A DNA stretch of 60,924 nt from Candidatus Woesearchaeota archaeon (GTDB taxonomy: Archaea; Nanobdellota; Nanobdellia; Pacearchaeales; GW2011-AR1), in contig CAYTHI010000004.1 of the NCBI GenBank assembly GCA_964437555.1, positions 1 to 60,924 on the forward strand, given 5' to 3'. This document shows positions 10,653 through 47,805 of this stretch, piece by piece (position 1 is the first letter of the stretch; each line of letters starts with the position of its first letter). The notes under the pieces were generated by a model, which was not told where the DNA came from, ran no database searches, and saw only the letters and a list, made by a program, of their open reading frames with translations. Position numbers and translations under genes: made by a program.

Positions 10653-12119
10653 TCAGATGGATTTATTTTTCTCGAACAGGGAGAGCGTTCTATACTCTTC
10701 AACTAATGTGAATCCCTCAATGTCCAAAGTTTTACCTTCGCTAATCGCATAAATTATAGATTTATAATCTGTTTCATCGTTAAATGCTTTTCTTATGTAC
10801 ATAGACGCACAGATGTCTCTTCTTTCCCCTATCAGAACATGTGAGCAAAATTCTTTTTCAGCAATAGTGGTTTCATTATTCAGATAAAGGTTATAGTCTT
10901 GTATGCTAACGAATTCTTTAACATTATTTCCCCAATAAATATCAGCCAAAATTTGATAACTATCCAGTCTATTGCCAACAACAAATGTTTCACCCGGATG
11001 CTTTGAAGAAATTTCATTCAGGTCGGAACTTATTAAATCTTTTTTAAACTCGTTATTTGTGCTCATTTCTGAAAAATATTTTATAAATGAACCAAGTTCG
11101 TGTCCTCCTAAATTTTCTCCCCCGTTAATTTCATATTTTGCCTGGATTATGTAGGGATTTATAACAAGTAAGGTGATAACTGAAAAAATAATGCACTGGA
11201 TTAAAAACTGCTTTTTTGTCATCTCTTTGTAAATAGTCAAAATTATAATCGGCGCCACAATGAGAAGAAATCTTACCTGAGAATTTATTATCAATAATAA
11301 TAATGATAATAAAATAAAGATTGAGGTTTTTTTGTTTTTTGTGAAGACCCTTGGCTTAAATACAAGATAAGTATAAAACGGAATAAATATCAGAAGAAGT
11401 ATCAGCCAGAATATTCCGTATAGCCTTCCCTGATTATAAAATCCTCCGTATATAGTTAAAGTTGAGGATGCAATTACATGCCTGAAAATCCCAAAAAAGG
11501 CAAATCCAAACAAGAGCTTGTCTAATATCAGCCTGGGCAAAACCCCGATTAAAATAAAAAATGAAAAATATATAGAATGTATTAAACTTTTATTATAAAA
11601 GAAGCTTATAAGAAAAAGAGGTATAAAAAACAAGACTCCATCCCAGAATGCCCAACTCAAACCTATCAGTGCGCCGGCATAAAAGAGGCTTATTAATCTG
11701 CCTTTCCCATCATACTCTTTGGTGAAATGATAACCCCATAAAAAAAGCAGGCTTGCAAGCTGGATTGGGCTTATCCAGGGAGACATATACCAAATAATTG
11801 GCGATAGCATGATGAGCCATAAAGCCCTTTTGTCTTTTCCGCTCATCCGATAAACTGAGTAAATTAACAAAAATAAAACAATTAAACTGGTTATTTTAAA
11901 GGAAAAATAATTTTCCATCATTCCAACAAATGGTGAATGAACCAATCCATAGAGATACGAATGTGATGTTCTTATTTTCGCATCATATTGTCCTGTAAAA
12001 AATTTGGCGCTGTCTGAATAATCATAGATGTCTGTATTGCCATAAAAATGCGTGAATAAAGTTATAACTATCATAAGCAATCCTAAACCCGATATGATGT
12101 ATTTCTGTCGTTTTTCCAT
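10653..12119 (-). CDS. Polytopic membrane glycosyltransferase-like protein (GT-C fold candidate) with C-terminal soluble domain
   Basis: About 330 aa of multiple hydrophobic helices, with an acidic first-loop motif (DIYDYSD), then a roughly 150-aa hydrophilic C-terminal domain. No WWDxG motif, so it is not called AglB. Confidence 0.45.
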   Translation of the reverse strand: MEKRQKYIISGLGLLMIVITLFTHFYGNTDIYDYSDSAKFFTGQYDAKIRTSHSYLYGLVHSPFVGMMENYFSFKITSLIVLFLLIYSVYRMSGKDKRALWLIMLSPIIWYMSPWISPIQLASLLFLWGYHFTKEYDGKGRLISLFYAGALIGLSWAFWDGVLFFIPLFLISFFYNKSLIHSIYFSFFILIGVLPRLILDKLLFGFAFFGIFRHVIASSTLTIYGGFYNQGRLYGIFWLILLLIFIPFYTYLVFKPRVFTKNKKTSIFILLSLLLLIINSQVRFLLIVAPIIILTIYKEMTKKQFLIQCIIFSVITLLVINPYIIQAKYEINGGENLGGHELGSFIKYFSEMSTNNEFKKDLISSDLNEISSKHPGETFVVGNRLDSYQILADIYWGNNVKEFVSIQDYNLYLNNETTIAEKEFCSHVLIGERRDICASMYIRKAFNDETDYKSIIYAISEGKTLDIEGFTLVEEYRTLSLFEKNKSI

Positions 12120-34031: not shown

Positions 34032-34280
34032 TTACTGCTCGTCTTTGTGATAAATCTTAAGGAAAATCAATCGATTTTCAGCAGGCAGGAAGGCATAAGC
34101 CAGCCTGTAAGATCCTGCATAAACCTCTCTTGACCCCTTTCTCTCAAACTTCATTGGCTTACCTATCTCTGGGTTTTCAATTATCTTTTTCACCAACTTT
34201 ATAATTTGCTCCTTAAAGGAGGCATCTTTAATCTTATTGAGAAATCTTTCGAATTTATCATCGTAAAATACCTCTACCAT
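34032..34280 (-). CDS. RelE/ParE-superfamily type II toxin
   Basis: 82 aa. The C-terminal YRLAYAFLPAENRLIFLKIYHKDEQ resembles the RelE/ParE YR..Y.......I.I..I.HR motif. Overlaps the upstream small gene by 7 nt. Confidence 0.7.
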   Translation of the reverse strand: MVEVFYDDKFERFLNKIKDASFKEQIIKLVKKIIENPEIGKPMKFERKGSREVYAGSYRLAYAFLPAENRLIFLKIYHKDEQ

Positions 34281-34468
34281 TTATCCAGTTCTTTGAGAAA
34301 TTTTTCCTTTGGGAGAGATTTAAACTCGCCTTTATCGTATCTTTCCCAAGACTCTGCTACTTGGCGAGCGAACTCGAGATCTTCTATATACTTATCCATA
34401 TTTTGCATTTTTGCCTTTAATTCCAGCAAGACTTTGTAAATTTCTTCGTTTGATATTTGGTTTTGCAT
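34274..34468 (-). CDS. Putative antitoxin partner of the RelE-like toxin
   Basis: 64-aa acidic helical ORF immediately upstream of and overlapping the toxin gene. Assignment is by position only. Confidence 0.55.
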   Translation of the reverse strand: MQNQISNEEIYKVLLELKAKMQNMDKYIEDLEFARQVAESWERYDKGEFKSLPKEKFLKELDKW

Positions 34469-34737
34469 TGAGTATCGTCGTTATTCTGATTAATAAACCT
34501 TTCTTTTGATGCCAAGCGCGTTCGGCGCTTCGCGCCTCACTTATTAATTAAAGATATATTTTTCTGCTTAATCCTGGTTTAAACAGGTGTTTGCCTTTCC
34601 CGTTTTTTGCTTTTCTCTGCTGAATTTTTCCCGTTAATTTGCCGACGATAAAGGGCGTTTGTTGAGTGTTTTCTTCATAATTAAATCGTGTGCTGGACTT
34701 GCATTAGTTTTTAGCGATTTTTTCGCACTTTGGATGG

Positions 34738-34922
34738 CTGTTTAAGCCTGTTTGTCTCTGTTTATCGCTGTTCAAACAGCTGTTTGTTTTTGGTTGGGGG
34801 GTGTTTAAGGGCTGTTTGTACCTGTTTAAGATTTCAAACAGGGGTGTTTTTTCTTACTTTGCTGAATTGCCTTTATAGGCCTTTAAAGCATAAAGTTTAT
34901 ATATTATGGCTGTTTTAAACAG
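34738..34922. repeat. Iteron-like array of CTGTTT / GTGTTT / AAACAG half-sites, phased at 10-12 bp
   Basis: Half-sites start at 34738, 34748, 34758, 34768, 34774(rev), 34780, 34801, 34812, 34822, 34836(rev), 34844, 34910 and 34917(rev). Includes the palindrome AAACAGCTGTTT at 34774-34785. Further copies lie at 34581-34592 and inside the downstream CDS (35054-35253). Confidence 0.8.
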
Positions 34923-34924
34923 GC

Positions 34925-35569
34925 ATGTTTTTTGGCTTATTTAGGAACAAGAGGGTGAAAAAGCTTGAAGATGAAACTAAGAAAGGTTTTCAAGCTGTCA
35001 AAGGCGATTTTGATAAGGTAGGCAAGTGGATTAAACACCTTGATGAGAAAGACAAACAGCTGTTTGATACTCTTGAACAACTAAAAATTGATTTATCGTC
35101 AATGAAAGATGAAATTTCCGGGCTTCGGGAAGCTGTTGACTTGATTTCTGAAACACCAAAAATTAAACAGGCATCTAAAAAAACAGCTGTTTATAACAAA
35201 CAGGGGGGTGTTTATGGTGTTGAAAAAGCTGTTCAAACAGCTGTTCAAACAGGTAATTTCTATGAAATTCTGCAGGGATTATCAAGCAATGAAAGGCTCC
35301 TGATTTATACCCTTGCAAATAGCGAGCTAAAGCTAAGTTATGAGGATTTGGCTAGGCTTTTAGGGAAAGAGAGATCTACAGTTAGGGGACAGATTAATAC
35401 TATAAAACAGAAAAGTGATGGGTTATTGATGGAATTAACTGAACCTTCTGGTAAAAAAAGGGTGTTTGTGAGTGATGAAATCAAGGAAAAACTGCTAAAA
35501 TACGCAAAAGTGAGGGTTAAATCATCAAAAAAATCGCTGAAAAAGGTGAAAAAGATAGAAGCAGAGTGA
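34925..35569 (+). CDS. Coiled-coil plus low-complexity linker plus C-terminal winged-helix (MarR-like) DNA-binding protein
   Basis: 214 aa. N-terminal heptad-like helix (KGFQAVKGDFDKVGKWIKHLDEKDKQLFDTLEQLK), linker KTAVYNKQGGVYGVEKAVQTAVQTG, and wHTH-like LIYTLANSELKLSYEDLARLLGKERSTVRGQINTIKQK. Confidence 0.55.
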   Translation: MFFGLFRNKRVKKLEDETKKGFQAVKGDFDKVGKWIKHLDEKDKQLFDTLEQLKIDLSSMKDEISGLREAVDLISETPKIKQASKKTAVYNKQGGVYGVEKAVQTAVQTGNFYEILQGLSSNERLLIYTLANSELKLSYEDLARLLGKERSTVRGQINTIKQKSDGLLMELTEPSGKKRVFVSDEIKEKLLKYAKVRVKSSKKSLKKVKKIEAE

Positions 35570-35808
35570 TGAAAAGACAAAAAATGAGAAAAAGAGAGCT
35601 CGAATGAACTTGAAAAATTTTTAGTTGAAGTAAAAGTGAGGAAAAATTGGAAAAGCGAGAACAATTTTTCTGATGGGCCAGAAAGAAGTTAATTAAAACG
35701 AACTTTAAATGTTAGAAATATTCGTTTAATAAGATTTCTTTGAAATCTTGAAAGGTTTTTGAGATTTAATTAGTTGTGAGTATTTATTCGGTTAGCGAGA
35801 TAACTCTA

Positions 35809-36513
35809 TTAAAGCTCTCTTAACTGGAGAATCGTGTTTAGTGAGGCGATTTTCTTGAGATCTTCTGGTATTGACAAGATAACTTTCTTGTTGTCTTCTT
35901 TGAGCTTATCGACGGGAATGCCTTTATTTGTTATTTTTCTTACGTAATCCCGAATAGAGATTTCTGATAGGCCAAGCTTTTCAGATAATAATGCATAATC
36001 AACGACAAACCCTTGTTCTTGAAGCTGATAAATTGTTGAAAATATCAGCATTTCCTTATTGGAAAGCTTCTTGAATTTAATGCGAATTTCTTTCTTAAGC
36101 TCGTCAAGGGAATTAAGGATTTCTGATGCCCTTCGGATACGGGAGATTCTATCTTCTTTCTCTTCTGTTTGATGTGCGTTATAAGTATTTAATGCGAACT
36201 TTACACTGGAAGTGGTGGGGTGTTGGTTGGTTTGTTGGTTTGTTGGTTGGTTTGTTGGAACCCCTTCATTTCCTGTGGAAATAATTAAGTTTGGGCTTTT
36301 TAAGGCGTATAAATGCCTTTTATCTGTTGAGGTTTGTGTTGGGGTGTTGGAATTATTTGTTGGTTGGTTTGTTGGATATACCTGATGTGTTGGGGTTTTA
36401 AGGGAATCTTTTAGCTCATTTAGTTCTTTTCTTACTTCTAATACCTCGCTGATTAGATTATCTATATCTTCTTTTACTTTTGAGAAGGCCTCTTTGATTT
36501 TATCGTCCTGCAT
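35809..36513 (-). CDS. Coiled-coil plus PTNQ-repeat linker plus C-terminal winged-helix DNA-binding protein
   Basis: 234 aa. N-terminal KEAFSKVKEDIDNLISEVLEVRKELNELK, a low-complexity PTNQPTN... linker, and wHTH-like MLIFSTIYQLQEQGFVVDYALLSEKLGLSEISIRDYVRKITNKGI. Same architecture as 34925-35569. Confidence 0.55.
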   Translation of the reverse strand: MQDDKIKEAFSKVKEDIDNLISEVLEVRKELNELKDSLKTPTHQVYPTNQPTNNSNTPTQTSTDKRHLYALKSPNLIISTGNEGVPTNQPTNQQTNQHPTTSSVKFALNTYNAHQTEEKEDRISRIRRASEILNSLDELKKEIRIKFKKLSNKEMLIFSTIYQLQEQGFVVDYALLSEKLGLSEISIRDYVRKITNKGIPVDKLKEDNKKVILSIPEDLKKIASLNTILQLREL

Positions 36514-36576
36514 CTTGTTTCTAGACGCCTTAAGATTATAAAGATTTATATAGATATATTCTAATTTTAAAAGTAT

Positions 36577-36837
36577 ATGGTCTCTTTAAAAGATTATCTT
36601 GGAGAGGAAGGTCTTGCAAATCCTGATAGAGTTCTCGCCTTTTGCAGTTTATGGTATGAAAAATTAGATGAAACTATGGGGTCTGCGGATAGACAGGATT
36701 TCTTATTTAGACAGCGAGATTTATGGCTTTTTGCGAATAAAGGAAAAGCAGAAAAGCTTTTGCAGAAGGTAACTTTATATTGGGCAGCATATTCTGAACA
36801 TAGCCCGATAATTAGAGGTATGCGGGGAGAAATATAG
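36577..36837 (+). CDS. Hypothetical protein (86 aa)
   Basis: ORF divergent from 35809-36513. No motif recognised. Confidence 0.3.
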   Translation: MVSLKDYLGEEGLANPDRVLAFCSLWYEKLDETMGSADRQDFLFRQRDLWLFANKGKAEKLLQKVTLYWAAYSEHSPIIRGMRGEI

Positions 36838-36845
36838 GCTCTTAA

Positions 36846-37124
36846 TTATTTGGACTGGCTTCTTTTGAACACTTCAAAAGCCTCGGAGGAAAGGCGCCAG
36901 CGCTGCCTTCTTGTATAATCTTCGCCTTGGGGGTTTTTGTTAATTTCGGCTATTAAAGACTTTGATTTTAAGTCTATAAGTAATGATTTAATGAACTCCT
37001 CGTCTCTTGCTATTGATTCTGCTATTTTATTCGTAAACGCTGATTGCGGGGATATTTCAAACAAATAATGCAGGATTTGCTCCTGGATTTTGTCTTTCTT
37101 CTTTTGCGAGATGCTTGGCATCAT
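36846..37124 (-). CDS. Small winged-helix-like DNA-binding protein
   Basis: 92 aa. IQEQILHYLFEISPQSAFTNKIAESIARDEEFIKSLLIDLKSKSLI looks like a wHTH (H1-H2-H3-wing) of the kind common in archaeal plasmids and viruses. Assignment by pattern only. Confidence 0.4.
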   Translation of the reverse strand: MMPSISQKKKDKIQEQILHYLFEISPQSAFTNKIAESIARDEEFIKSLLIDLKSKSLIAEINKNPQGEDYTRRQRWRLSSEAFEVFKRSQSK

Positions 37125-37207: not shown

Positions 37208-37840
37208 ATGAAAAAGGATATGTTTGGATTGAGAAAAAGATACAGAAGATGGGAGAAAGAGTATGCCCAGTTTGATTCCAATCACTATCCGGGTAAAGCT
37301 CTGACTCCGTTTAAATCAAGAATAGTCAGAAGTGTTGAATCTATAAAGCCATTTGTTGTGCCTGGTTTGGCTTTGTGGGCTATATTGGCTCCGCCAGCGA
37401 CCTATAACATAGGGTCTTTTAGTAATTATCCAAGAGAAATTCATGTCGGAATAACTGACGAATTTTACCTAAACTTTGATGGAATACCTGACGCAATCGT
37501 TGGATTGAATAGTGGGAAGATGATTCCATTTTATGGAGCAAGGGCGACCGGCGGAGTAAATCCGAAACTTAAGCAAATTTATTTGAATAACAATCCTCAT
37601 TCTCCTGAAAGCCGCTTTGCATATGAAGATTTAGTTATCAGAATGCTGAATGGAGATCGCAAGGCAAGCGATGAGCTTCTTAACATTGTTTCATTAGAAA
37701 CGCGTATTGAAATTTTTGAAACTATGTCTGCAAGGTGCGCGGAAATCGGGGAGATAAAAATAGCCGAATATGCTTCTAGAATGACTGATATCTACAAAAG
37801 TATTTTACAGAAACAACAGGGGAAAGAGCAAGACAAATAA
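37208..37840 (+). CDS. Hypothetical protein with one predicted TM helix (210 aa)
   Basis: Long ORF with one hydrophobic segment (PFVVPGLALWAILAPPA). No catalytic motif recognised. Confidence 0.4.
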   Translation: MKKDMFGLRKRYRRWEKEYAQFDSNHYPGKALTPFKSRIVRSVESIKPFVVPGLALWAILAPPATYNIGSFSNYPREIHVGITDEFYLNFDGIPDAIVGLNSGKMIPFYGARATGGVNPKLKQIYLNNNPHSPESRFAYEDLVIRMLNGDRKASDELLNIVSLETRIEIFETMSARCAEIGEIKIAEYASRMTDIYKSILQKQQGKEQDK

Positions 37841-37912
37841 GTTTATCTGAACGGATTTTTATTATAGAGACTAACGGAAAATTTAAATAATACAAAATAC
37901 ATCACTTGTATT

Positions 37913-38218
37913 ATGAAGGACAAATTAACAACTATCAGGATTTCGTCTGAAGTTGATGGCGAAATAGAAAAGCTGGCAAGGATAGAAGATACTGAAAAGT
38001 CCAAGCTTATAAGGGAGCTGATAATTCTTGGGATGAAAGAAAAGAAGCTTGAAGAGGCGCTGAAACTTTATGAAGAAAGAAAAATATCTTTATGGAAAGC
38101 TGCGCGCTTCGCGGGCATTTCTTTATGGAGAATGATGGAAATTGCAGGAAAGAGAAAAGTAGTTCTCCAATATGGGCTGAAAGAATTGAAAGAAGATTTG
38201 AAGGCGCTGGAGGAATAA
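37913..38218 (+). CDS. UPF0175-family HTH antitoxin-like protein
   Basis: KLYEERKISLWKAARFAGISLWRMMEIAGKRKV is the typical UPF0175 core. Sits directly upstream of a DUF3368/PIN gene, a pairing I recall as recurrent. Confidence 0.7.
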   Translation: MKDKLTTIRISSEVDGEIEKLARIEDTEKSKLIRELIILGMKEKKLEEALKLYEERKISLWKAARFAGISLWRMMEIAGKRKVVLQYGLKELKEDLKALEE

Positions 38219-38219
38219 T

Positions 38220-38726
38220 TTGATAGTCTCAAATGCGAGCCCTTTGATATACTTAGCTAAAATCAATAAATTAGAGCTATTAAAAAAGTTGTTTGGAAAG
38301 ATTTTTATCCCGCCTGAAGTTTATCAAGAGGCTGTTGTAAGGGGAAGAGAAGAAAAGTTTTTGGATGCAATTAGGATAGAAAAAGCAATTAAAGATGGCT
38401 GGATAGAAGTAAACAAGACAGAAAAGCTGGCAGAAGAAATAAAAGTATTTGCTGATGAAATTGACGCAGGCGAGCTGGAAACAATTGGCTTAGCAAGAAA
38501 GCTAAAAGCTTCTTTAGTTTTGAGCGACGATGCTCCTGCAAGAGCGATTGCCGAGAGCTTTGGGCTTAATTCCAAGGGAACGATTTATGTTTTACTAAGG
38601 GCTTATAAGGAAAAAATGCTCCCTAAAAAAAATGTTAAAGAGCTGGTAAATGAGCTTTCGTCTTTGGGCTTTAGAATCTCGCAGGAGGTTTATATTGAAT
38701 TTTTAGAGAAATTGGAGAAGGGTTAG
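38220..38726 (+). CDS. PIN-like nuclease domain protein (DUF3368 family), putative toxin
   Basis: The N-terminus SNASPLIYLAKINKLELLKKLFGKIFIPPEVYQE is characteristic of DUF3368. TTG start 2 nt after the upstream stop. 168 aa. Confidence 0.7.
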   Translation: MIVSNASPLIYLAKINKLELLKKLFGKIFIPPEVYQEAVVRGREEKFLDAIRIEKAIKDGWIEVNKTEKLAEEIKVFADEIDAGELETIGLARKLKASLVLSDDAPARAIAESFGLNSKGTIYVLLRAYKEKMLPKKNVKELVNELSSLGFRISQEVYIEFLEKLEKG

Positions 38727-38867
38727 CTTATTGAAACTTGCAAGGCGGTCTTTGTGCGGGTGATTTCAGATTCTGGCATGCCCTTGAGATGGTTTAGCGT
38801 AATTGCTAAGTAACTATTAAGTGGTAAAAACCGAAAGGTTTAAATACTTGCTATTTTTAAGAAAAAC

Positions 38868-39389
38868 ATGGAAACAAGAAACCAGCCAGAAGAAACCCGG
38901 TCAGATAATAAATACAGATATGATTTAGCAAGTGCTGTTGTTGGTGCTGTTGTTGGTGCTGTTGTTGGTGCTGTTGTTGGTGCTGGTGTTGCTGGTGCTG
39001 GTGGTGCTGGTGCTGCTGTTGTTGGTGCTGTTGTTGGTGGTGTTATTGTTGATGCTGTTGGTGCTGTTGTTGGTGCTGGTGCCGAGGAATTAAAACCGCG
39101 CCATGTTAAAATTGGTGGATTAACTGGTTTAGCAACTTCTGCTGCAATTATTGGCGGAGTATATACTGGGCTTCATTATGGAGGAGAAGCCGGATTAATA
39201 CCATTTAAGACTGAAACAGAGACGGGAATCGTAGTTAGTAGAAATAATGGGGAGCAAAAAATTTATATTGAAAAAGATGGCGCTTATATTCCTCTTGATG
39301 AAATTGGGGAGAATGTTTTGAGTTCTACATCAACAGAACATTCGGGTCTTGAATATCGAATTCTTAAATCAATAAAAAAGAAAGAATAA
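38868..39389 (+). CDS. Glycine-zipper (AVVG-repeat) membrane protein with a C-terminal soluble domain
   Basis: 173 aa. Residues about 20-75 are (A/G)VVG repeats (GxxxG periodicity), then a second hydrophobic stretch and a hydrophilic tail. Confidence 0.5.
   Translation: METRNQPEETRSDNKYRYDLASAVVGAVVGAVVGAVVGAGVAGAGGAGAAVVGAVVGGVIVDAVGAVVGAGAEELKPRHVKIGGLTGLATSAAIIGGVYTGLHYGGEAGLIPFKTETETGIVVSRNNGEQKIYIEKDGAYIPLDEIGENVLSSTSTEHSGLEYRILKSIKKKE
38924..39060 (+). repeat. Tandem 12-bp repeat GCTGTTGTTGGT and variants
   Basis: Four perfect head-to-tail copies at 38924-38971, followed by degenerate GCTGGTG/GCTGTTG units. Encodes the AVVG repeats. Confidence 0.85.
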
Positions 39390-39634
39390 ATAATTTGTTT
39401 ATCGGCTTATTGGCAATTTCGCTTAAGCAAGCGATTGTGCTCTTTCATTTGTTTATACTCGGCGCTTAAGCGGAGCGAGAAATCTTTGAGGGCTTAGCTA
39501 TTCTTCTGTTTTTATAATATTTCAATAAAGGGCACGACAAGATTACATTTATTGATTTTCTAGTTAATGCATAGATTTATAATTATTATTCAAAGGATAT
39601 GACTATATTACAAATATAAATATTAGGATGGTTT

Positions 39635-39943
39635 ATGCTAATAATGAATAAGCTTGAGAGAATTTTAGACATTTGGCAAAGGGTCTCCGATAAAAGAATA
39701 AAAGTTGCTGTTGATTTGATGATGCTCAAATATTATTTGGATGCGGAAGATAATAATGTGAAAGCCCTAATAAAAGATTTGAAGAAACAAGTTGGCGTAT
39801 TAATAAGAAGAGAAGATAAATTGGGCTGGATGGCTATTAAGGAAAGAATCTCTGTCGCATACAAGGGGATTTATAGATGCGCTGATGAATCTTTTAGAAG
39901 GCTGGACCCTTACATAAGCGTAATCAGAACATATTTTAATTAG
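39635..39943 (+). CDS. Hypothetical protein (about 100 aa)
   Basis: Helical, charged ORF. No motif recognised. Confidence 0.3.
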   Translation: MLIMNKLERILDIWQRVSDKRIKVAVDLMMLKYYLDAEDNNVKALIKDLKKQVGVLIRREDKLGWMAIKERISVAYKGIYRCADESFRRLDPYISVIRTYFN

Positions 39944-46199: not shown

Positions 46200-46560
46200 T
46201 GAGAGATTGAAACAAGTCAATTCAAAAGGAAGAGAACCCCTCCCCCCTTCATTTCCTGTGGAAAAAAGAGAAGGGTTTATAAATAAATTGTATTTTTTAT
46301 TTTTTTCATTTTTCTTTTTAAATTTATATATTTTATAATATATATAATGTAATAAATAGATTTTAAATAGAAAACTTATATATCATGAATGAAAAACGAA
46401 AGAGAAGTGCTTGTTTTTAGAGTTTCATCGGAAATGAAGGTGTGAGTCTTGTTTTTACTTTAAAATTACTCTTTAAAGTACGCCGACGATAATTTCTTTT
46501 TTTGTTATTCTTTCCATAAGAAATACAGGTTGAAGTAGCGATAACTTTATAATCAATAGG
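46200..46560. other. Candidate chromosomal replication origin (oriC): inverted ORB elements flanking an AT-rich DUE
   Basis: ORB1 46235-46264 reads TTTCCACAGGAAATGAAGGGGGGAGGGG on the minus strand: a dyad TTTCC-N3-GGAAA plus a G-string. ORB2 46424-46447 (TTTCATCGGAAATGAAGGTGTG) is in inverted orientation. Between them is a stretch of over 100 bp that is almost pure A/T (about 46277-46380). Directly upstream of orc1/cdc6. Confidence 0.7.
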
Positions 46561-46596: not shown

Positions 46597-47805
46597 ATGT
46601 CTCAGAAAATTGACAAAATTTTTGATTCTTTTATCAGAAATAATTTATTTAAGAGCAAAGCAGTCCTGCAGATAAATTACACTCCTGAAATTATTGCACA
46701 CAGGGACGAGCAGACAAGCGCTGTTGCTTCTGTACTCGCCCCCGCGCTGAGAAACGAAAGGATAAGCAACCTTTTTGTTTACGGAAAAACAGGCACAGGC
46801 AAAACCCTGAGTGTTCAATATGTGGGAAATGAAATATTAAAGAGGGCAAAAGATAGGGGCGAGGATTTTGTTAATGTCATTTATGTCAATTGCAAGCTAA
46901 AGAAAGTAGCAGATACAGAATATAGAATTCTTGCTGAAATCATTAATCGCCTTGGCGGAAATGTCCCTTCAACAGGCCTGCCCACAGACGTAGTTTATAA
47001 TAAATTTGTTTCTTTAATTGATAATAAAAGACAAATAGTTATTTTGATATTGGATGAAATTGACCAGGCAGTAAAAAAGATTTCTGATAATTTTCTTTAT
47101 ACTCTTACAAGACTGAATTCTGATTTGAAAAATGCGCAAATAGGGATTATAGGCATAAGCAACAGCTTAACATTTATGGATAATTTAGATCCAAGAGTGA
47201 GAAGCTCTCTCGGCGAAGAGGAATTGGTTTTTTCTCCCTACAATGCTTTGCAATTGCAGGATATTCTGAAACAGAGGGCAGACCAGGCTTTTGTTGAGGG
47301 AGTTTTAGAAGAAGGAGTTATTGCCAAGTGTGCGGCTTACGCCGCAAGGGAGCACGGAGATGCCAGAAGAGCTTTAGATTTATTAAGAGTGGCGGGCGAG
47401 CTCGCGGAAAGGGAAGGCAGTAAAAGAGTGAGTCTTACTCATATAGATGCCGCAAACAACAAAATTGAGAGGGATAAAATGCTGGACATCATTCAGAATG
47501 AGCCGAGGCAATTTCAGCTTGTTTTAAATGCTATTATAGACCTTACAGAGGATAAAAAGTTTGACAGAATTTTTACAGGAAATATTTATAATAAATACCA
47601 GGAAGTATGCACAAAAACAAAAAACGAAATTCTTACACAGAGGAGAGTTTCTGATATAATCGCAGAGTTTGACATGCTTGGCATAATCAATGCAGATGTT
47701 ATCAGCAAGGGAAGGCAGGGGAGAACAAGAGTAATAAAGCTGATGCTGACGGAAGGCCTGAGGGAAAAAGCAAGAGAGATACTTAATGAAAGCCTGAATT
47801 TATAA
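46597..47805 (+). CDS. cdc6: Orc1/Cdc6 replication initiator
   Basis: Walker A YGKTGTGKT, Walker B ILDEID, sensor and C-terminal winged-helix regions. 402 aa. Confidence 0.92.
   Translation: MSQKIDKIFDSFIRNNLFKSKAVLQINYTPEIIAHRDEQTSAVASVLAPALRNERISNLFVYGKTGTGKTLSVQYVGNEILKRAKDRGEDFVNVIYVNCKLKKVADTEYRILAEIINRLGGNVPSTGLPTDVVYNKFVSLIDNKRQIVILILDEIDQAVKKISDNFLYTLTRLNSDLKNAQIGIIGISNSLTFMDNLDPRVRSSLGEEELVFSPYNALQLQDILKQRADQAFVEGVLEEGVIAKCAAYAAREHGDARRALDLLRVAGELAEREGSKRVSLTHIDAANNKIERDKMLDIIQNEPRQFQLVLNAIIDLTEDKKFDRIFTGNIYNKYQEVCTKTKNEILTQRRVSDIIAEFDMLGIINADVISKGRQGRTRVIKLMLTEGLREKAREILNESLNL

Follow-up and report, generated by a model that had tools for sequence, protein, structure and literature searches.

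A candidate Orc1/Cdc6-binding site conserved within the coding linker of an origin-proximal gene family in Woesearchaeota and Pacearchaeota

A 60.9-kb stretch of DNA from a Candidatus Woesearchaeota archaeon (contig CAYTHI010000004.1; 60,924 nt, here called the window, to whose positions all coordinates refer) carries an origin recognition box (ORB) within the open reading frame (ORF) of a gene for a 234-aa winged helix-turn-helix (wHTH) protein. The box stands about 10 kb from orc1/cdc6 and a canonical origin, recurs throughout the gene's family and is very probably a conserved element at the level of DNA inside the gene. Orc1/Cdc6 is its probable binder, because ORBs bind Orc1 monomers with a defined polarity (introduction of PMC12141716). 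For the whole, comparison of sequences inclines us modestly towards a conserved, origin-proximal, non-origin candidate Orc1/Cdc6-binding locus written in a translated linker. A role of this locus in non-origin control or titration is speculative, and is regarded as possible rather than probable.

A complete origin recognition box lies within the 234-aa gene

The host gene and its ORB occupy the following positions.

35809-36513, minus strand: 234-aa gene; its product has a helix at the N-terminus, then a disordered linker (about 75 aa, whose coding sequence contains the DNA elements), followed by a long helix and a MarR-like winged HTH
36259-36281, minus strand: in-gene ORB, TT TCCACAGGA AAT GAA GGGGTT, comprising a dyad mini-ORB, a 3-nt spacer and a G-string, and read as (I)STGNEGV

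The in-gene ORB is almost identical to the published ORB GTTCCAGTGGAAATGA-AGGGGT, listed with the archaeal consensus CTTCCAGTGGAAACGAAAGGGGT in Table 2 of PMC4153887. The euryarchaeal ORB consensus likewise consists of a mini-ORB with a G-string, and GT stretches follow some Haloferax ORBs (PMC1868953). Related loci were sought by scanning one genome per GTDB species, which yielded 489; 80 of these were kept with 10-kb flanks (L001-L080) and provide 1.21 Mb for pattern counts, and 79 orthologues were used for codon statistics. The family form of the in-gene ORB, TCCAnnGGAAATnnnGGGGTT, is present in 78/79 orthologues. Its dyad core, (T)TCCAnnGGAAA, is found in the window as TTTCCACAGGAAA at 36269-36281 on the minus strand and is invariant in the same proportion of genes, while the G-string that follows the 3-nt spacer and gives the site its polarity is GGGG in all 68 aligned copies (columns 25-28, 100% G). 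At oriC, GG stands at the same offset in 23/35 sites.

These oriC sites permit a direct comparison. Within 900 nt upstream of orc1 the relatives hold 35 TCCNNNGGA dyad sites (70 when both strands are counted, where 2.7 would be expected). The oriC consensus TTTCCAnnGGAAATnAnGGTGT and the in-gene consensus ATTTCCACAGGAAATnAnGGGGTT share the same conserved and variable positions, the free positions in both being the dyad centre and spacer positions 1 and 3, and outside the anchoring positions their information-content profiles are correlated (Spearman 0.65, p=6e-4). Of the two, the in-gene sequence varies less. In the related loci the full ORB pattern occurs 83 times in the 234-aa gene and 28 times outside it, 21 of the latter within 900 nt upstream of orc1; it is thereby shown to be specific to oriC and the 234-aa gene in this sample.

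A scan of metagenomes for the exact 20-mer returned at least 127 occurrences. Of these, 62 belong to the gene family, 11 have an orc1 homologue no more than 2.5 kb away and 10 share one thiC-like coding context; 36 are on contigs whose shortness prevents a verdict, and for the other 8 no orc1 lies within 2.5 kb. In the thiC-like context the 20-mer TTCCACAGGAAATGAAGGGG is read in frame as FPQEMKGV, close to the N-terminus of a 420-aa ThiC-like protein encoded on GC-richer contigs (L118:2053-2072 and about nine other metagenome loci; those listed are L091, L114, L117, L141, L142, L146, L175, L176, L185 and L195), and could represent chance plus homology or another coding-embedded ORB. One metagenome contig carries two identical ORBs with identical AT-rich flanks (TATTATTATTATTTCCACAGGAAATGAAGGGGTATATATACC) 7.2 kb apart (L100:4723-4742 and 11955-11974), with no orc1 homologue detected at that locus.

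Synonymous sites are frozen around the box

Across the 79 orthologues the residues encoded by the ORB and its immediate continuation are each written with essentially one codon: Ser79 as TCC in 78/79, Gly81 as GGA in 74/74, Gly84 as GGG in 76/78, Val85 as GTT in 79/79, Pro86 as CCA in 66/67 and Thr87 as ACA in 71/72. Invariant residues of the wHTH and C-terminal part (Ser186, Arg188, Leu136 and Leu182) use 4-6 codons each. Normalised codon entropy (Hnorm) at conserved amino acid columns, measured on 69 sequences of less than 80% identity, is 0.215 for aa 51-100 compared with 0.809 elsewhere (Mann-Whitney p=1.5e-8). Comparison with the nearest relative, at 80% amino acid identity, shows synonymous differences in 0/29 identical residues of aa 70-100 and in 42/112 of the C-terminal part. 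The frozen zone extends over approximately 150 nt. Every gene keeps frame 0 open, while around three stops per 171-nt core interrupt the alternative sense frames, which indicates that the region is translated. AlphaFold2 places helices at 2-38 and 116-148 and a confident wHTH at 152-233, with a predicted local distance difference test (pLDDT) score of about 50 at residues ~41-120; the overlap of the frozen zone with this low-scoring segment means that it encodes the disordered linker.

The box is not tied to one reading frame or strand. Among the 79 genes the ORB pattern occurs 73 times in the main frame, three times in a second sense frame (xPQEIGGL) and seven times antisense in three frames (HPxISTG, QPPYFHWK, DNPTLPQE). 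The peptides read from these other frames and from the antisense strand are unrelated, which argues for an element of double-stranded DNA. Furthermore, the variable motif residues 80 and 83 fall exactly on the dyad centre and the spacer of the ORB. The S-x-G-N-x-G-V peptide is a mere translation of ORB DNA. Among 137 full-length representatives picked by their C-terminal domain alone, S.GN.GV is found in 127 and close variants in 9 more.

That the element is instead an ordinary protein motif (STGNEGVPTNQ...) under strong codon bias, with its ORB likeness due to chance, is scarcely credible. S-x-G-N-x-G-V-P-T with its TNQ/TDRQ repeats is indeed the best-conserved part of the linker, and of the protein's middle, in protein alignments. 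However, elsewhere in these genes the same amino acids use all of their codons, GGG and TCC are not preferred outside the zone, the region is predicted to be disordered, and neither the occurrence of the element in other frames and on the other strand nor the position of the two variable residues would be expected of a peptide.

Frozen synonymous sites would also be expected from selection on the mRNA, whether for a structured element, a small RNA or ribosome target or a recoding signal, and the dyad is able to form a short hairpin. RNAalifold, applied to 45 orthologous 135-nt segments on both strands, returned no consensus structure beyond a 3-5-bp dyad on either (-1.1 and -3.1 kcal/mol, 0 compensatory pairs), and Rfam gave no match at the locus, searched at the gathering threshold over the whole window and in permissive mode over 35700-36700. 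A known or structured RNA element was rejected on these grounds. As the ORB and the GTTCG module described below also occur in both orientations and several frames, and 79/79 genes are in frame with no frameshift variants, conservation at the mRNA level is highly improbable. An overlapping gene was likewise rejected: among 78 genes, 4, 29 and 22 keep the respective antisense frames open across the 171-nt core, and 2 and 1 the alternative sense frames.

The window's origin and the exact 21-nt match

The origin beside orc1/cdc6 has the following parts.

46244-46266, minus strand: distal oriC ORB with doubled G-string, reading TTTCCACAGGAAATGAAGGGGGGAGGGG; partner of the 21-nt match; relatives have this class as, for example, TCCAGTGGAAATGATAGGGTGAGGGT
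46265-46419, no strand assigned: AT-rich candidate unwinding element of about 150 nt between the inverted oriC ORBs, read from sequence
46420-46444, plus strand: oriC ORB of the -150 class, GTTTCATCGGAAATGAAGGTGTGAG; pattern match at 46422-46438 with one mismatch to the degenerate pattern; position and form as in relatives
46511-46531, plus strand: ORB-like site of the -70 class, TTTCCATAAGAAATACAGGTT, with one dyad mismatch; relatives' -70 sites include TTTCCATAGGAAATAGAGGTT; read by comparison
46597-47805, plus strand: orc1/cdc6 initiator gene (Pfam Cdc6_lid 4.8e-27, Cdc6_C 2.5e-24), followed by the PolD small and large subunits

An earlier note on this DNA had reported that a 21-nt origin sequence recurs in the gene, and the match itself was reproduced. 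The 21-mer CCCCTTCATTTCCTGTGGAAA is found exactly at just two window sites, 36261-36281 and 46244-46264, on the same strand; no further site occurs in the window at up to three mismatches, and none was seen in 100 shuffles either. The first copy is in frame within the 234-aa ORF, where its reverse complement ATT TCC ACA GGA AAT GAA GGG GTT encodes ISTGNEGV, and GAACCCC precedes both copies, with 7 extra bases at the origin copy. The second copy was correctly assigned to an origin. It forms part of a typical archaeal oriC 333 nt upstream of orc1/cdc6, where the ORB at 46244-46266 is inverted and flanks the AT-rich element. The in-gene ORB is placed differently, inside an ORF and about 10 kb from orc1 (2-9 kb in relatives), and flanks no AT-rich element. 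In relatives the oriC ORBs lie at about -150 and about -70 facing orc1, with an inverted one at -300 to -600. This distal inverted ORB has a doubled G-string (GGGGGGAGGGG in the window, AGGGTGAGGGT in relatives), while the orc1-proximal ORBs have GGTGTG followed by GT-rich sequence instead, which looks like a clade-specific origin architecture. GC skew across the 61-kb window was uninformative for the origin.

The exactness of the match does not extend to the family. Where a genome has both site types (24 genomes), its in-gene ORB resembles its own oriC ORBs no more closely than it does the oriC ORBs of the others (permutation p=0.9), and the link of the in-gene ORB to Orc1 is consequently one of consensus-level similarity. 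Gene conversion or co-evolution with the own oriC ORBs was rejected as a general rule by this test. The window is an outlier, its in-gene and distal oriC ORBs agreeing at 12/14 variable positions compared with 4-9 in the 23 other genomes. The 21/21 identity is therefore atypical, peculiar to this genome and no general rule. Either both sites are near the optimal ORB, the match being a coincidence picked out by the earlier reader, or local gene conversion has taken place; in this one genome conversion may have run between the oriC copy and the in-gene copy in either direction. The same note would have counted itself refuted if orthologues all carried the segment as ordinary conserved coding sequence dissimilar to their own ORBs, and the outcome is mixed. 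Relatives do all carry it, but not as ordinary coding sequence, and it resembles their own ORBs at the level of the consensus.

The agreement at 12/14 positions lends some support to a recent local event in an accessory element, such as a recombination scar, gene conversion from oriC or an integrated replicon recruiting the host's Orc1, as do the toxin-antitoxin genes and non-conserved ORFs nearby (37208-39943 and 34032-34468). We nevertheless regard such an event as very unlikely to explain the in-gene ORB. The in-gene copy is the family consensus, present in 78/79 orthologues and ancestral to hundreds of species, which leaves the scar that the earlier note had envisaged without support, and the identity is explicable by both sites being near the optimal ORB. 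As a general claim, a local event is refuted by family-wide conservation and synteny.

The host gene has a conserved, core-like neighbourhood

More than 2000 relatives of the 234-aa protein came back from a protein search; among the matches listed, the best are full length at ~45-60% identity and derive from assemblies of Nanoarchaeota, Woesearchaeota and Pacearchaeota, in some cases on contigs of 0.4-0.77 Mb. The family forms more than 400 clusters at 50% identity and spans the Woesearchaeota and Pacearchaeota, with full-length relatives in 489 GTDB species genomes. Its conserved neighbourhood runs from the PolD large and small subunits through orc1, oriC, a PRC-barrel protein, a 138-aa protein, a metallophosphoesterase, an Lhr-type helicase and a 92-aa wHTH protein to the 234-aa gene and a convergent 214-aa gene, the PRC-barrel, metallophosphoesterase and helicase neighbours being assigned by Pfam. 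In 41 loci orc1 is always divergent and lies 2-9 kb from the 234-aa gene (median 5.6 kb), compared with ~10 kb in the window. The gene directly upstream serves as a control for codon usage.

36846-37124, minus strand: 92-aa small wHTH gene, on the same strand directly upstream in 77/80 loci, with normal codon entropy (Hnorm 0.85)

The description of the 234-aa gene as an island gene, and of its surroundings as an integrated replicon, is not borne out by this conserved, core-like setting, and no relatives of the gene were found on the viral contigs of IMG/VR, on which basis a mobile element or virus was rejected. What stands of the earlier proposal of an ORB hidden in a coding linker is that a canonical ORB lies in translated sequence and is selected as DNA rather than peptide family-wide; the island setting falls away. 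The same core-like synteny, with no relatives on viral contigs, tells against the local event considered above. Two toxin-antitoxin pairs are interspersed among the conserved origin-proximal genes, at 37913-38726 (UPF0175/RHH with a PIN-like protein) and at 34032-34468 (a ParE-like toxin with a small upstream ORF), and nothing in the closest relative (L081) corresponds to the segment 37208-39943. These inserted non-conserved ORFs, including the toxin-antitoxin pairs, are probably what gave the impression of an island. A 173-aa ORF in the non-conserved insert (38868-39389) encodes a long (V/A)VGA repeat (VVGAVVGAVVGAVVGAG...), a glycine-zipper-like segment of low complexity.

The C-terminal domain of the 234-aa protein is modelled with pLDDT >90, and its top Foldseek matches are MarR-family regulators (E 8.5e-4, TM ~0.44 normalised by target). 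Pfam and NCBIfam gave only sub-threshold HTH matches for this protein and a PDB sequence search gave no match; none of the 234-, 214- and 92-aa proteins had a significant match in Pfam, NCBIfam or the PDB sequence search.

Further elements surround the in-gene ORB

The frozen zone holds several elements besides the ORB.

36212-36258, minus strand: T-free A/C tract adjoining the G-string, (ACNN)n with CCAA/CAAA units, translated as PTNQPTNQQTNQHPTT; includes the 21-bp repeat at 36239-36259
36200-36222, plus strand: degenerate second ORB, inverted, reading TTTACACTGGAAGTGGTGGGGTG; right half-dyad and G-string kept, left half-dyad decayed
36187-36204, minus strand: GTTCG module; the gene strand reads GTAAAGTTCGCATTAAAT
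36282-36327 (~45 nt), minus strand: conserved module preceding the ORB, ACAGATAAAAGGCATTTATACGCCTTAAAAAGCCCAAACTTAATTA on the gene strand
36328-36378, minus strand: upstream CCAACA-type repeats, including the 21-bp repeat at 36356-36376

In the window the tract comprises 47 nt without T on the gene strand; family-wide, the T-free run is 41 nt long at the median (interquartile range 38.5-46), and the T content is 1.1%. It contains 8-10 period-4 'AC' units in 64/78 genes, with CCAA/CAAA (read PTNQ) or ACAG (read TDRQ) as the unit. So constant a length speaks against a drifting microsatellite, as the unchanging frame does against phase variation, and a phase-variable tetranucleotide locus was rejected because of this unit number, the 79/79 genes in frame and the often imperfect repeats (CCAA/CAAA). 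The 21-bp direct repeats TTTGTTGGTTGGTTTGTTGGA are exact at 36239-36259 and 36356-36376 with a start-to-start distance of 117 bp, or 39 codons, just as first described. They are nonetheless pieces of the upstream and downstream A/C tracts, and since two further 86% copies of TTTGTTGGTTGGTTTGTTGGA occur at 36219 and 36227 they belong to a low-complexity (TTGG/TTTG)n tract and do not form a discrete bracket. The idea of a 117-bp unit bracketed by repeats also fails in the nearest relative, which at 80% amino acid identity has the ORB and the downstream tract without the perfect upstream repeat, a further point against a local event.

Upstream of the ORB, the anchored nucleotide alignment gives the module consensus t.caaca.at.a....c.t..a.A.g...tAAaa..c..aaat, and its codons are nearly fixed (CCA 0.96, ACA 1.0, CCT 0.90, GCC 0.89, AAA 0.98, AAT 0.98). 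TCCAACA[CG]AT occurs 63 times in the 79 genes, always sense, and 23 times in the other 1.16 Mb. Of the GTTCG module's AAGTTCGnnnAA there are 47 copies in the 79 genes (34 sense, 13 antisense) in all three frames, at ~16 times the density found outside the gene. The same AAGTTCGnnnAA occurs in the 3' part of the 214-aa neighbour gene (0-500 nt past the stop of the 234-aa gene).

In many genes a second ORB follows the tract, either inverted with the G-strings facing each other or as a direct half-site. An intact inverted ORB (CACCCCnnnATTTCCACTGGAAA) stands at the position of the window's degenerate copy in relatives such as L004, L006, L027 and L036, and in other relatives this position is taken by a direct half-ORB (ACTGGAAATGAAGGGGT). 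A tandem 21-nt (7-codon) ORB duplication is found at L002:10172-10213, and L057, L061, L063, L073 and L078 carry an extra ORB ~43 nt upstream of the main one, in a different frame and followed by the palindrome-like GGGGTTAAAAACCCC. Only one full ORB is present in 63/79 orthologues.

The paired sites raise the question of whether replication could also start at the in-gene ORB cluster, as a second or auxiliary site that might be a dormant origin or the distal part of a bipartite oriC, with Orc1 loading MCM between paired ORBs. The two inverted full ORBs of L004, L006, L027 and L036 are ~38-47 nt apart; beside orc1 in Ca. M. alvus, ORBs paired in inverted orientation have similar spacings of 39 and 47 nt (PMC4153887 Table 2). 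In every case the locus lies close to the origin, and the complementary strand of the tract consists of T and G only, while A. pernix Orc1 prefers T-rich single-stranded DNA (PMC8287685). We nevertheless find a start site quite unlikely, given the single full ORB of most orthologues, the spacer of ~45-50% G+C in a 35% G+C genome with no AT-rich unwinding element, G-strings that point inward in the gene and outward at oriC, the lack of a GC-skew signal in the window, and the site's position in a gene that is translated and co-directionally transcribed, with a complete canonical oriC just 2-10 kb away.

A palindrome array occupies the convergent neighbour

The neighbouring locus contains two features.

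34925-35569, plus strand: 214-aa convergent neighbour, encoding a coiled coil, a linker and an HTH; present in 75/80 loci
34560-35250, no strand assigned: array of AACAGCTGTT palindromes and CTGTTT/AAACAG half-sites, reaching from upstream of the neighbour into its coding sequence, of which it covers the first half

The 214-aa gene has the same architecture as the 234-aa gene, and BLASTP detected no homology between the two proteins beyond a weak N-terminal similarity. Its linker too is frozen at the nucleotide level, with xVQT repeats written as [GC]CTGTTCAAACA that yield the palindrome AACAGCTGTT, fixed GTT/CAA/ACA codons at aa 81-115 and a gene-wide mean Hnorm of 0.52. AACAnnTGTT occurs eight times in the window against 1.18 expected, five of these at 34582-35245, and across the loci (1.2 Mb) ~335/401 copies fall at +500 to +1500 from the stop of the 234-aa gene. 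Half-site density in the array zone is 1-2.5 per 100 nt against a background of ~0.1 (10-25x) in more than 70 loci, and the enriched zone reaches into the neighbour's upstream intergenic region. The ORB gene is thus part of a ~2-kb origin-proximal locus (34.56-36.4 kb) of cis elements in and beside two convergent genes for DNA-binding proteins.

Such a locus might act like a centromere or organise the chromosome, with the local wHTH proteins as its main binders; the ORB look-alike would then be read by one of these proteins, or by them together with Orc1. Precedent exists in B. subtilis, where a parS site lies within spo0J. Three conserved DNA-binding genes stand together at an origin-proximal position, the other modules occur in both orientations, and each locus has ~12 CTGTTT/AAACAG half-sites in or upstream of the neighbour, including 4-5 perfect AACAGCTGTT, with frozen codons and almost absent elsewhere. 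The ORB, however, is reproduced as a full bipartite element including a G-string at fixed spacing. In solved Orc1-DNA complexes it is the AAA+ domain, not the wHTH, that contacts the G-string part (cf. PMC3089459), which counts against reading of the element by the wHTH proteins. With no ParA/SegA-type ATPase in the conserved neighbourhood, we judge a site of this kind unlikely.

Discussion

Our results describe conserved candidate initiator sites outside the origin, with 1-2 full ORBs per gene plus half-sites, built on a pattern otherwise confined to oriC. Purifying selection on double-stranded DNA preserves the ORB in the linker-coding part of the gene. Under the non-origin Orc1/Cdc6-binding reading, Orc1/Cdc6 may dock on this ORB, and in many orthologues on a second direct, tandem or inverted one. 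The placement of the elements in the linker is attributed to genomes almost devoid of intergenic space and to a disordered linker that tolerates the imposed peptide. Together the ORB, the ~40-nt T-free (ACNN)n tract and the neighbour's palindrome array would form a non-origin nucleoprotein locus 2-10 kb from oriC, serving as an auxiliary initiator-binding site and not as a start site. A non-origin role is favoured because the locus lacks an AT-rich unwinding element, its tract is ~45-50% G+C, and its G-strings point inward, unlike those at oriC. Since the in-gene ORB is selected as DNA across the family, titration or another non-origin use of Orc1 is a live explanation, and the locus could buffer or handcuff Orc1 near the origin in the manner of datA in bacteria or incA in plasmid P1. 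Alternatively, or in addition, expression of the two wHTH genes may be coupled to Orc1 occupancy, with bound Orc1 acting for instance as a roadblock or repressor.

The tract offers a lead as a candidate Orc1 track, given the T-rich single-stranded DNA preference noted above (PMC8287685) and the GT stretches of Haloferax (PMC1868953). A more elaborate model, which we put forward as a doubtful one, is a dedicated docking locus in which a high-affinity ORB is joined to a fixed-length (ACNN)n track (mostly 8-10 units) that guides Orc1 oligomerisation or single-strand contact as a tetranucleotide analogue of the DnaA-trio, with the array recruiting partner wHTH proteins and the whole controlling initiation.

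Several observations weigh against the Orc1/Cdc6-binding reading. The frozen zone far exceeds one ORB, and its GTTCG module, upstream module and repeat tract are no known Orc1 targets. The G-string is GGGGTT in the gene and mostly GGTGTG at oriC, and genome-specific co-variation with the own oriC ORBs is lacking (permutation p=0.9). The neighbour gene carries a different palindrome array, and local wHTH proteins could be the main binders.

Control of archaeal initiation beyond the origin is almost unknown, and DPANN archaea are not growable in pure culture. A conserved candidate initiator site outside the origin that is defined by its sequence therefore provides a concrete object for testing, and one that can be surveyed in several hundred complete Nanobdellota genomes. 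If the in-gene ORB is indeed a docking locus, it would show clearly how a DNA signal can pass for a 'conserved protein motif', and would indicate that very compact genomes can hold cis-regulatory DNA within disordered protein linkers. It also calls for caution in annotation, as S-x-G-N-x-G-V-P-T and the PTNQ/TDRQ repeats are imposed by DNA elements and would mislead function prediction or phylogenetic markers that depend on alignment.

Among known systems, the arrangement recalls the DnaA-trios, which adjoin DnaA boxes in bacterial origins. The order shared is that of a double-stranded initiator box, a G/C-rich element and a short-period repeat of fixed length on one strand, and this is a resemblance only; the trios have period 3 rather than 4 and serve another initiator family, and the locus here has no evident unwinding region. 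With parS in spo0J/parB it shares an origin-proximal cis element in the ORF of a DNA-binding protein and constraint on synonymous sites. However, parS is bound by the product of its own gene, whereas the sequence here is that of an Orc1 site and ParA/ParB homologues are lacking. Non-origin initiator sites are familiar from E. coli datA/DARS, the DnaA-box clusters of B. subtilis and the P1 incA iterons, which are often origin-proximal and, without firing themselves, govern how much initiator is available or handcuff the origin. The in-gene ORB has in common with datA, DARS and incA that they are candidate initiator sites outside the origin; the initiator differs (DnaA or RepA, not Orc1), and those sites are mostly intergenic clusters of many boxes while here 1-3 candidate sites, in the form of ORBs, lie in coding DNA. 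A docking locus, if confirmed, would be the first archaeal counterpart of these control sites. The Sulfolobus ucm/UBP system (PMC12141716) was considered as an analogue of the additional modules and set aside, there being no basis for equating them.

The closest comparison is with ORBs themselves. The orc1-adjacent ORBs of Sulfolobus oriC1, Pyrococcus, Haloferax and Methanomassiliicoccales have the same bipartite structure of dyad mini-ORB TTCCAnnGGAAA, short spacer and G-string, and the pattern of conserved and variable positions in the in-gene element matches that of the same clade's oriC ORBs. In contrast to canonical ORBs, the in-gene element lies in a translated ORF 2-10 kb from orc1, flanks no AT-rich DNA unwinding element and is followed by a T-free (ACNN)n tract. 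A literature search found no report of an ORB in coding sequence or conserved in frame in a gene family, of DPANN origin elements or of the peptide strings, which is an absence and not a proof; a preprint on 208 complete Nanobdellota genomes (bioRxiv 10.64898/2026.05.13.725050) rotates them to ORC1 and does not mention ORBs. Isolated ORBs away from orc1 are already known, such as ORB3 and ORB4 of Ca. Methanomassiliicoccus intestinalis downstream of ftsZ and nifH/E (PMC4153887 Table 2), and these likewise are full ORB sequences outside the orc1-adjacent origin. They are placed by their neighbouring genes in a single genome with no shown conservation, whereas the element described here belongs to a gene family, in frame, in hundreds of species; a conserved in-frame ORB in a gene family is, as far as we have found, new.

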